Shown one piece after another: positions 3,011-58,605 of a stretch of DNA of 64,000 nt. The notes beneath the pieces are model-generated. The model was not told where the DNA came from and searched no databases. It saw only the letters and a program-made list of their open reading frames with translations. The position numbers and the translations under genes are program-made. This DNA comes from Eledone cirrhosa (taxonomy: Eukaryota): assembly GCA_964016885.1 (NCBI GenBank), contig OZ024740.1:46996001-47060000 (forward strand), given 5' to 3'. Each line of letters starts with the position of its first letter. The stretch's first letter is position 1.

Positions 3011-3061
3011 AGTTTCAGAAGATCCCGTTAAGGGTGAAAGCAGCGTTTCTTTGCTTAAACT
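3011..3061 (+). ncRNA. Hammerhead motif, U4A core variant
   Basis: AGTTT-CAGAAGA-TCCCGTTAAGGGT-GAAAGCA...TGCTT|AAACT. Confidence 0.7.
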
Positions 3062-3120
3062 TTAATCTGTTATTTTAATAAATATATATATATATATATA
3101 TATATATATATATATATATA

Positions 3121-3309
3121 TAGGAACAAATAAAACCCCGACGGCTGAGCTCAAGCCGTTTCGACGGCTAATTCCAGAATTAGCCGTCGAAACGGCTTGA
3201 GCTCAGCCGTCGGGGTCTTACTTGTTCCTACTACCCACTCTACTACCCTAAGTATTGAGTACTTTGGTGCGTTATGGTCCACCTGGTTCCTTACCACATT
3301 TCCTTCGTT
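3121..3309. repeat. Fold-back palindrome (3121-3230) of an HHR 3' half plus tail, in (TA)n
   Basis: Arms contain GAAACGGCT-TGAGCTC-AGCCGTC|GGGG. Same family at 1478-1610, 10089-10155, 27802-28012, 37173-37368 and 53255-53275. Confidence 0.8.
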
Positions 3310-3389
3310 ATATATATATATATATATATATATATATATATATATATATATATATATATAGTCTTATAGTTTGCATGAAGCTTTGTGGA

Positions 3390-3765
3390 ATATGAAATAC
3401 AAATATAACTACGAAATAAATTTGGTTATTTGGAAGCCCGAAAATGCGTGGGAGATATAAATGCCAAGATGATAAGAATTTGAGAAAATAGTAAAAACTG
3501 AGATAAACGACTGAGAACGATAGAAAGCCACCCATGACATTTCTCAGGTTTCTCGCCGAGGCCCCACCAAGGACTCACCTTGATAATGGAGGTAAATCCG
3601 AAAATATTTGGGATCATTAAAATTGCTAAATAACTTTCTATCATTCTCAGTCATTTCTTTTGTTCTGTTTTCACAAATTCTTATTATCTTGGCATTTATA
3701 TCTCACATTGTCGGGCTTCCAAACAAATAACCAAACTTATTTCGTAGTTATATTTATATTTCATG
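3390..3765. mobile_element. PLE pLTR remnant with diverged inverted arms (3390-3527 / 3634-3765)
   Basis: About 135-bp inverted repeat enclosing an HHR variant. Confidence 0.65.
3575..3613 (+). ncRNA. Minimal hammerhead, U3-A8 core variant
   Basis: CC-TTGATAA-TGGAGGTAAATCC-GAAA-ATAT-TT|GG. Palindromic stem III AATATT, short stem I. Confidence 0.55.
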
Positions 3766-3944
3766 TATATATAATTAGAAATTTATTCATTCATGTGTGT
3801 ATGTATGCATGTATGTACATATTTAATGCATTTATTTGTATCAAATTTTTAATGTCTATAATATATATATATATATATATATATATATATATATATATAT
3901 ATATGTGTGTGTGTGTGTGTGTGTGTGTGTGTGTGTGTGTGTGT

Positions 3945-4165
3945 GTGGTGGATTAACTGTATTAGTAGGGCGTCTGACAACATGTTTTGCAAGCATTTAG
4001 TTACGGCTTTTTACATTCTGAGATTAAATCCCGCCGCAGCTAGTTTTGCTTTTCATCCATACGGGCCTGGTAAAATAAAGTACCAGTAACGCCCTGGGGT
4101 CAATCTAATTGATTTTCCCATTCTCTTCAAATTGCTGTCATTGTGCCAAATGTAGAACTAATTGT
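3945..4165 (+). mobile_element. tRNA-derived SINE (family 1, Nin/Deu-like central domain), diverged
   Basis: A-box and B-box-like head, then TTTCATCC..GG..TAAAATAAAGTACCAG. Confidence 0.7.
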
Positions 4166-4239
4166 AATAAAACAGCTAGGCCCTAAGGTCAGGTTTCAAT
4201 CGTTTTGATGGTGCACATATATATATAAATATATATATG

Positions 4240-4321
4240 GAGAGAGAGAGAGAGAGAGAGAGAGAGAGAGTGAGAGAGAGAGAGAGAGAGAGAGAGAGAG
4301 AGAGAGAGAGAGAGAGAGAGA
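4240..4321. repeat. (GA)n microsatellite
   Basis: Direct reading. Confidence 0.95.
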
Positions 4322-56620: not shown

Positions 56621-57117
56621 TTTTTTGTTTTTTTGTTTTTTTGTTTTTTTGTGAATGTGTCTGTTGATTTTTGGCATATAGTTGATTAGTTTAAGAGAAG
56701 TTCGAAGATAATAGTAAGATATGCACTCAGTATTTTGAATCTGTCTGCAGAATTCTCTAGACCTTTGTCACTTAGTAGAACCTTAATGACTTTAGCTTTT
56801 AAAGAATCTCCCTTTTCTTTAATTCTATCGACCATGACTGACCCCCCACTGACTTTATAGACATCTGTTAGCTTAAGAGAAACTTATTGACAAGGAATGG
56901 TATGCCATCCGGAACCTGTTTATAGAATTCTGTCTGCCTTTGTTACTCTAAAAACATAAATAAATATAAATAAAAATAAAAATAAACTATAGCCTTGTAG
57001 AATTAGCTTTTAATGAATTCCCTTTTCTATCAACCAATGACCTGCACCCATCCCACTCCCCACCCTCTCCTACCACTTGTAGAGACCTATAAATACCATA
57101 TTTATTTTTTGATACCC

Positions 57118-57168
57118 AGATTCCTGATGATTTCTAATGAATGAAACAGTTCTAGTCCTGTAGAATCT
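57118..57168 (+). ncRNA. Type-I hammerhead ribozyme
   Basis: AGATTC-CTGATGA-TTTCTAATGAAT-GAAACAG-TTCTAGTC-CTGTA|GAATCT. Confidence 0.85.
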
Positions 57169-57553
57169 CTTCTATATTAAAACTGTTATACTCTGCCATG
57201 TATTGAGTACCTTACTTACTGTGGTTACCTCCGATTCAACCCGGAATAACGTATATATATATATATATATAGAATAGAATGAAACGAAATTTAATTTCTC
57301 ACTCTTAGTGAGGCACTTACTTAAATGTAAGTATGTATGTATGTATACGTACATACATATATGTATACAGACATACATGCGCACACATATATATGCACGT
57401 ATCGGTTTACCGAAGATTTATTATAATACTCGGTTTGTTTGTTTGTGCCCGGGCGACTGAACTCACTCGATATGCAAATTAGGCTGCTCAGCCGTTAATA
57501 TGCATAAGGAAAGTATATACTTTCAGACGTTCAACGATCTGGCAGGAAGGTAT

Positions 57554-57596
57554 ACGATGCTGACGATAGCTGATAAGCTTGAAACTAGTACATCGT
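57554..57596 (+). ncRNA. Minimal type-I hammerhead (tandem copy 1)
   Basis: ACGATG-CTGACGA-TAGCTGATAAGCTT-GAAAC-TA-GTA|CATCGT. Confidence 0.88.
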
Positions 57597-57999
57597 TCCT
57601 GTGTTAGTGTTGAACAAAAAGGTGACGTGGTTGCCTAAACACTGTACGGCGTAATTCGGGCTGTTTGTTTGTAAACAAACAAAGAGCCCGAGCATTATAA
57701 TAAATGTTCGGTAAACTGATACGTGCATATATATGTGTGCATGTATGTATATATATATACATACTACTGTACGTCTGTATACATATATGTATGTACGTAT
57801 ACATACATACATACTTACATTTAAGTAAGTGCCGTACTAAGAGTGAGAAATGAAATTTCGTTTCATTCTATTCCATTTAACGTTTTCGGTGTGCCCGGCC
57901 GACTGAACTCACTCGATATGCAAATTAGGCTGCTCAGCCGTTAATATGCATAAGGAAAGTATATACTTTCAGACGTTCAACCATCTGGCAGGAAGGTAT

Positions 58000-58042
58000 A
58001 CGATGCTGACGATAGCTAATAAGCTTGAAACTAGTACATCGT
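58000..58042 (+). ncRNA. Minimal type-I hammerhead (tandem copy 2)
   Basis: ACGATG-CTGACGA-TAGCTAATAAGCTT-GAAAC-TA-GTA|CATCGT. Confidence 0.88.
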
Positions 58043-58249
58043 TCCTGTGTCAGTGTTGAACATAAAGGTGACGTGGTTGCCTAAACTGTGTACGGCGTAA
58101 TTCGGGCTGTTTGTTTGTTTACAAACAAACAAACTGAGCATTATAAGAAATGTTCGGTAAACCGATACGTGCATATATATATATGTGTGCATGTATGTAT
58201 ATATATACATATAACTGTACGTCTGTATATATATATATATATATATATA

Positions 58250-58605
58250 TAGTAATAATAATAAATTTGAAGACTAAAATCCAAAGAGGGCTCGATAAGG
58301 ATAAATATATATATATAAGGACAGATATATAAGAACCGTAGAGCAAATATTTATTAAAATAACAGATTAAAGTTTAAGCAAAGAATGGCTGCTTTCACCC
58401 TTAACGTATTATCTTCGTTTTTTTCCGTTCTTTGCCAGGGAACGTTTCCACAAACCAAAGTATCGTCTTCCTGTCTTCCTTCGGTTGCAATGTTTTTTAA
58501 ATATTTACTTCTGCTTTCACAGATTGACTTTTTTTAGTTTCAGAAGATCTCGTTAAGGGTGAAAGCAGTGATTCTTTGCTTAAACTTTAATCTGTTATTT
58601 TAATA
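58250..58605. mobile_element. Inverted plus direct pLTR of the U4A family (HHR at 58536-58586, +)
   Basis: The inverted arm 58250-58406 stops in loop 2 of the HHR. The direct arm matches 2880-3080. Confidence 0.8.

Follow-up and report, generated by a model that had tools for sequence, protein, structure and literature searches.

The genome of Eledone cirrhosa (3.0 Gb) contains a Penelope-like element (PLE) family, made up of retrotransposons whose pseudo-long terminal repeats (pLTRs) carry a hammerhead ribozyme motif with an unusual core. The stretch analyzed here, called the window, is 64,000 nucleotides long (contig OZ024740.1, positions 46996001-47060000) and holds four copies of the motif. 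In each of them the core reads CAGAAGA, with an A at position 4 where the hammerhead consensus has the U4 of its CUGA turn. The A is present in nearly all exact copies in the genome, and the fold around it was kept by purifying selection while two subfamilies of the element diverged. We are about half persuaded that the motif is an attenuated but active pLTR hammerhead, carrying A4 throughout the lineage, which would cut after a CUU triplet more slowly than a canonical ribozyme does.

Three helices surround the core, and helix I is the open one. In the first copy (2995..3070, plus strand; described from sequence, a descriptor scan and fold evaluation), stem I pairs AGUUU with AAACU over 5 bp (3011-3015 with 3057-3061) and is prolonged past a 7-nt bulge by a distal stem of 9 bp (2995-3003 with 3062-3070), which was absent from the initial annotation. 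The core C3 A4 G5 A6 A7 G8 A9 occupies 3016-3022, with A4 at 3017. Then come stem II (3023-3035), with a U10.1.U11.1 closing mismatch, three pairs CCC/GGG and the loop GUUAA; the sequence GAAA (G12 A13 A14 A15.1) at 3036-3039; and stem III (3039-3043 with 3051-3055), in which A15.1-U16.1 and GCAG/UUGC make 5 bp below a 7-nt loop. The triplet C16.2-U16.1-U17 (CUU) lies at 3054-3056, and the predicted cut falls between 3056 and 3057. C3, G5, A6, G8, A9, G12, A13, A14, A15.1-U16.1 and H17 are all present and are the same in both subfamilies; U4 is the consensus feature that is missing. By this layout it counts as a variant of the type I hammerhead, outside the consensus at U4.

The CAGAAGA core and the type I layout are found at all four sites given for them in the initial annotation (3011, 5552, 18596 and 58536), with C3 at 3016 (+), 5597 (-), 18641 (-) and 58541 (+). 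The annotation also called these four full copies with intact stems I-III. They are full motifs, but they are not full elements, since every one is 5'-truncated, and stem I of the copy at 18596 is only 3 bp long.

A4 across the genome and between subfamilies

Copies in the genome were counted as exact matches to a 31-mer pattern in which positions 4 and 7 were left free. The pattern matches 18,271 times and its reversed control 0 times, so the motif is not a product of chance. Position 4 is A in 18,081 of these copies (99.0%) and another letter in 190. In the genome-wide check of A versus U put forward by the initial annotation, the prevailing letter is thus A, and the U4 consensus that would have refuted its idea is not seen. 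That annotation held A4 to be ancestral and not a sign of decay, on the ground that the window copies differ at other sites. The ancestry is borne out by the genome counts and by the presence of A4 in the older subfamily, but the argument from the window is insufficient, because no more than 0-2 differences separate its four copies over the 51 nt of the motif. The DNA contigs show no alternative letter at 3017 at a 3% threshold, which is not independent support.

The copies without A4 are ordinary background mutations that arose after insertion. Counted by eye, the first 100 of the 190 comprise 39 T, 35 G and 26 C, and a control A in loop 2 is lost in 296 copies, the first 100 of which (again by eye) are 46 T, 36 G and 18 C; position 4 thus has fewer changes than the control and a similar share of A-to-T. 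A hidden master subfamily with U4 can be rejected on the same comparison of 190 with 296. A looser U4 pattern finds 198 copies, and the 100 examined resemble mutated members of the A4 family. Adenosine-to-inosine editing of A4 as an activator is likewise unsupported, for G4 copies do not exceed the loop 2 control. Loci picked by other means tell the same story: A4 is found in 50 of 50 matched cores at 25 loci picked by protein search and in 31 of 31 at 29 loci selected through endonuclease DNA (both counts leave out cores whose anchors are damaged), and the element copies with open reading frames (ORFs) carry it too.

Other families in this genome keep the canonical letter. U4 is found in about 85,000 motifs that share the U.U layout (control pattern, 159). 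The A4 form of that layout has 1,630 matches (control, 162), 303 of which belong to one unrelated repeat, and the remainder of the first 100 resemble mutated copies of known families. The unrelated repeat, which reads CAGACGA, was considered as a second A4 family and rejected, as it has neither stem I nor stem III and no PLE ORF. It is very young, with its 303 copies (L290-L309) agreeing at 97-99% across 2.4 kb or more and with internal AGACGATAG repeats. CAGACGA also occurs in seven listed units of a tandem array of another family (contig 53356631-53369063), a locally amplified A4 variant. The A4 of the PLE motif most likely derives from U4, the letter found in those 85,000 motifs, in a sibling PLE of the window and in all 26 published Hydra-clade hammerheads, whose descriptor demands it. 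The U4 motifs whose stem II resembles that of the family belong to unrelated families, and its immediate U4 ancestor was not found among them.

The element has two subfamilies that can be compared. Subfamily B, the older and decayed one, was gathered by DNA search and then again, against bias, with the B upstream untranslated region (UTR) alone. The second search gave 30 loci, 4 of them without the core; the other 26 have 25 A, 1 C and 0 T at position 4, and the seed and several earlier loci recur among them. The commonest letters of 21 young and 29 B copies were then compared, with the B set partly gathered by a pattern that requires A4. Not one of 54 stem and core positions differs, whereas 8 of the 22 positions that lie in loops or are free do, N7 included (36%; Fisher p = 1.7e-5). 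The flanks differ at 27/89 positions upstream and 17/86 downstream. In the ORF, 37 of 81 four-fold sites differ (p = 9e-11 against stem and core), or about 0.70 substitutions per site after correction, as do 29 of 405 non-degenerate sites; these figures come from 9 B fragments and from codons that 4 or more copies cover with a majority of 60%, and the decay of B may somewhat inflate them. The contrast of 0/54 with 8/22 and 37/81 argues that the fold has been under strong purifying selection with A4 in place, which is not what a relic would look like. A recent swap of the motif between the subfamilies would not readily leave its loops 36% diverged, and this argues against it.

The differences that do exist are confined to loops 1, 2 and 3 and N7. 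The sole core change is A versus U at N7, which is the free position of the hammerhead consensus (PMC3088659). G12 and G8, described as the general base and general acid of the hammerhead (PMC6155905), are kept, as is the C3-G8 pair. Apart from N7, the core has nine unpaired positions, and none of them has changed (p about 0.004 at the four-fold rate and 0.04 at the upstream-UTR rate). Both subfamilies also keep the U at 1.7 and, in loop 2, the final A, and their geometry fits a contact between loops 1 and 2. A tertiary contact of this kind is a feature of known hammerhead structures. The stems, which the initial annotation expected to be conserved or covarying, are conserved and do not covary between the two subfamilies. 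What the comparison does show is that no reversion to U4 swept through the lineage during their divergence.

The host element and its known relatives

The assignment of the motif to a PLE family, already made in the initial annotation, is upheld by an ORF that joins a reverse transcriptase (RT) to a GIY-YIG endonuclease, by pLTR-ORF-pLTR tandems and by inverted 5' pieces. One unit of the element spans 3,259 bp, with its ATG 199 nt past C3 of the upstream pLTR. The longer copies (L104, L107, L186-L210) are partial tandems of the form pLTR-ORF-pLTR, with inverted 5' pieces and an optional 3' extension. Open frames of 712-714 codons are present at 8 of the 25 loci obtained by protein search, and they are 96-98% identical to each other where compared with copy L190. 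The ORF of L190 codes for 709 aa, with YRDD at 346 in the RT and with IVY at 583 and YIG at 598 in the C-terminal endonuclease. Its clade motifs are RWR at 37, DKT at 115, the linker CxCx5C at 564 and, in the endonuclease, CxxC at 662 and CxH at 690.

By its motifs, the element is a new family of the Hydra clade of PLEs. The assignment follows from RWR, DKT, CxCx5C and CxxC/CxH, from the (TA)n target of the element, and from the lack of any match in the L190 protein to the CX2-5CxxC linker that marks the Neptune clade; the latter clade was therefore dropped. A Pfam search of the L190 protein gave no match, RVT_1 was matched in 1 of 30 aligned proteins, and a PDB profile search gave no relevant match. 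The element protein has 520 database homologues, and the best 120 of these are 37-56% identical to it. One metagenome relative at 40% identity (L211) has a U4 hammerhead nearly identical, by eye, to the published motif of Hydra-1_aMil. Within one insertion, the upstream and downstream pLTRs differ by 1.3%, compared to 2.8% between insertions (16 pairs), a difference that cannot tell a circular template from a linear one. Also rejected was the idea of a further, canonical hammerhead within the element, as there is none in the L190 ORF or 3'UTR.

The Hydra-clade PLEs described by Craig et al. (2021, PMC8557442) share with this element a single ORF with a C-terminal endonuclease, the RW(K/R), DKT, CxCx5C, CxxC and CxH motifs, (TA)n targets and a hammerhead near the element 3' end. 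Both U10.1.U11.1 and U17 occur there as well, in 14 and 10 of the 26 rows, respectively. However, all 26 Hydra-clade hammerheads in File S2 of that paper have CUGA, which the descriptor demands, and a GUH triplet, while the present family has CAGA and C16.2. The CUU triplet results from a two-sided change, in which the 15.2-16.2 pair is flipped from the C-G of the clade, with G16.2 in every row, to G15.2-C16.2, and stem III is thereby preserved. CUU agrees with the U16, H17 hammerhead consensus, and U10.1.U11.1 occurs in natural hammerheads as the best-tolerated mismatch at that pair (both PMC3088659). The new family also differs from the clade in its longer stem III with a 7-nt loop, its 9-bp distal stem and its 3.26-kb unit, the families listed in that paper being mostly under 3 kb.

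A second point of comparison is the minimal PLE hammerheads reported by Cervera and De la Pena (2014, PMC4209133). They are type I, lie in pLTRs in the sense of the ORF and reach massive copy numbers, as in the case described here, and they include a natural core variant, U3-A8. They have a minimal or palindromic helix III, for which dimers are proposed, and G10.1-C11.1 with an extra base, in contrast to the 5-bp non-palindromic stem III, the U.U closing pair and the A4 of this family. Natural core variants of other hammerheads include U4C in a viroid, as well as U3-A8, A6C, A6a, U13a and U15.1-A16.1 (Perreault et al. 2011, PMC3088659). The viroid U4C is a substitution at this same "strictly conserved" position. 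The variants in that account are rare single cases; here, two subfamilies and more than 18,000 copies carry a fixed A4.

The text of PMC3088659, figures aside, names no purine at position 4, and no natural A4 hammerhead core was found in the text of the literature searched, figures and bioRxiv supplements aside. In the parts consulted, none of PMC6765202, PMC11014351, 10.64898/2026.07.22.740005, PMC3907566, PMC6155905, PMC11300833 and PMC7229834 names one. The hammerhead consensus includes U4, and so do the search filters consulted (PMC3088659, PMC8557442), so a lineage in which A4 is fixed escapes them, and in this one genome that means at least 18,000 motifs. The initial annotation suggested a core variant missed by standard searches. 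An Rfam scan of the window gave 138 matches at E<=1 and no hammerhead family among them, in agreement with this, but the canonical-core motifs of other families in the window are missed as well, and the silence of Rfam is therefore not specific to A4.

What the motif may do

The function of hammerheads in PLEs with an endonuclease is said to be unclear and possibly parasitic (PMC8557442), although PLE hammerheads have been proposed to release element RNA by upstream cleavage (PMC4209133). Applied to this family, the proposal would work as follows. A read-through transcript would fold the three-way junction as a monomer, by means of the 5-bp stem III. The distal stem and a contact between loops 1 and 2 would partly offset the lost contact of the U-turn, in which U4 normally touches the A6-N7 phosphate (PMC3088659). 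A cut in the upstream pLTR, some 160 nt ahead of the ATG, would then release the element RNA from a host or tandem transcript. A4 is also predicted to permit a competing UUUCA/UGAAA helix, which would lower the active fraction of the RNA. Slow cutting may be tolerated or even useful, since insertions run on for about 27 nt past the downstream cut before they end, meaning that their templates were uncut or re-ligated there. A precedent exists in the natural U4C variant, whose activity is much reduced in vitro and sufficient in vivo (PMC3088659). Attenuation is favored by this variant, by the phosphate contact of U4, by where the insertions end and by the weakness of CUGA mutants described next.

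Several points weigh against an active but slow ribozyme. When mutants of a type III hammerhead were scanned pairwise, all single and double mutants of the CUGA region were low in activity, except for the C3-G8 swap (PMC9901934). GUC and AUC are reported as the fastest triplets in PMC1636495, which gives no rate for CUU, and this motif combines three suboptimal features, namely A4, U.U and CUU. The hammerhead fold is predicted at -13.0 kcal/mol, about 2 above the predicted minimum of -15.1. Yet prediction gives no hammerhead fold for two window motifs with a canonical core either, so such energies carry little weight, and folding z-scores of 0.15 to 1.06 are uninformative. A cleavage footprint was sought in the 5' junctions with a negative result: there is no pile-up at the predicted cut (110 versus 89 four bases upstream), and the 30 junctions inspected are mostly microhomology inversions or deletions. 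The absence of stem changes means that the two A4 subfamilies offer no covariation, and an unchanged A4 is no proof of a selected A, since it has a chance of about 54% at the four-fold rate.

One could consider instead that nothing was lost with U4, because the tertiary-stabilized context compensates for A4 and the rate is about that of a U4 ribozyme. We think this unlikely. No U4 form swept the family while four-fold sites gathered about 0.7 substitutions each, even though A-to-T changes do arise (the 39 noted above), the 9-bp distal stem is conserved, and the family is very abundant and, with its 8 loci of 712-714 open codons, recently active. Against these facts stand the poor performance of CUGA mutants even in an extended hammerhead (PMC9901934), the roughly 85,000 canonical-core motifs that show U4 to be normally held, and the lack of an identified compensating change adjoining position 4. 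A bolder form of the idea, which we regard as an outside chance of similar size, is that of an efficient natural cleaver without the U-turn U. In it, A4 would build an alternative turn, and the UUUCA/UGAAA helix would act as an on/off switch that spares the downstream pLTR and cuts the upstream one. If true, this would widen the hammerhead consensus, and whole families would be invisible to searches based on CUGA.

The opposite view is that the fold is selected but does not cut, being a site that binds or positions the RT/endonuclease of the element or a protein of the host, or a conformational switch. Insertions do run uncut through the downstream motif, junctions show no excess at the cut site, and Naiad PLEs thrive without canonical hammerheads (PMC8557442). 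The helix favored by A4 also takes up U11.1 and A15.1, with a predicted probability of A4-U11.1 pairing of 0.39 in the commonest natural sequence and 0.08 in a single B copy. Nevertheless, the nine unpaired core positions other than N7 that stay unchanged form the pattern expected of a catalytic fold, although a protein that recognizes the core could yield the same pattern; we rate a silent fold as improbable, on a par with full activity. Two further explanations can be held far less probable. For a dead relic that hitchhikes in a successful element, one can cite that U4 is treated as invariant and that standard searches discard core mutants as non-functional (PMC3088659); neutrality, however, predicts about 11-25 changes in the 54 positions, next to interleaved loops that did change, and the 0/54 comparison largely refutes the idea. 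A DNA-level signal in the pLTR, such as a promoter or integration signal, would account for the missing compensatory changes and for a pLTR end that is more conserved than the distal UTR, and promoters are said to reside in PLE pLTRs (PMC6765202). It sits poorly with changes that fall in loops 1, 2 and 3 and N7 and never in stems or core, and with a 15.2-16.2 pair flipped on both sides relative to the clade, and we give it very little credence. The pattern of selection likewise makes the proliferation of the family with a non-functional motif a disfavored option. The attenuated ribozyme remains the reading to which we lean, and the natural contrast of A4 and U4 within one genome makes the need for cleavage, and its speed, open to experiment.

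Copies in the window and neighboring repeats

The four window copies lie in 5'-truncated insertions, each with an inverted piece. Insertion 1 (1694..3083, +) consists of an endonuclease remnant, 3'UTR, pLTR and (TA)n end and is 89.5% identical to the full-length natural copy L189 over 1,442 columns. The broken C-terminal GIY-YIG endonuclease lies upstream of motif copy 1 (1694..2094, +), with an internal stop and a frame break, and its DNA is 96-97% identical to that of other copies. An inverted piece of post-pLTR sequence forms the 5' end of the insertion (1646..1694, -), which with this piece covers 1646-3083, and the 3'UTR has two tandem units of about 140 bp that are 79% alike (2660..2932, +). 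Motif copy 2 (5543..5618, -; C3 at 5597) belongs to insertion 5528-6671, with its inverted piece at 6622-6671. Copy 3 (18587..18644, -; C3 at 18641) belongs to insertion 18572-18702, the junction of which cuts the motif, leaving the 3 bp of stem I and removing the distal 5' strand and with it the distal stem. Copy 4 (58519..58595, +; C3 at 58541) belongs to insertion 58249-58610 and has a G.U wobble as one stem II pair, plus one change in loop 3. The inverted piece of this insertion (58249..58406, -) carries the motif's 3' half (loop 2 and beyond) and the extension. A further fragment of the same family (60125..60215, -) is made of the extension only, without the core.

At least three other hammerhead-like families with the canonical U4 core are present in the 64 kb, none of them found by Rfam. 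Their motifs lie at 27304, 57560, 58006 and 57124 on the plus strand and at 53351, 18992, 37674, 19494, 24960 and 183 on the minus strand. Two of these (53351 and 57124) are the U4 pLTR motifs of a sibling Hydra-like PLE with 50-52% protein identity (insertion 53290-57170, ORF end at 53565-54029), which has an inverted 5' pLTR piece and a long, microsatellite-rich 3'UTR. A GIY-YIG remnant at 19872-20297 (+) represents a third Hydra-like family, at 41% identity. Elsewhere on the contig, 310-bp tandem arrays in which every unit has a canonical hammerhead core, resembling retrozymes, are found at 5388711-5392665 and 5544446-5546331.

A short repeat at 3125-3310 and 1480-1615 of the window, with a near-perfect inverted repeat at about 3138-3214, contains the apparent 3' half of another hammerhead (GAAAC, a palindromic loop 3 and GUC), the 5' half having been lost at an inversion. 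The minus strand at 50656-50713 has a tRNA-like Rfam match above the gathering score (35.5 bits, partial model), which is possibly the head of a short interspersed element. Finally, 18154-18283 is a perfect 130-bp palindrome, with weak matches to microRNA models below the gathering thresholds.

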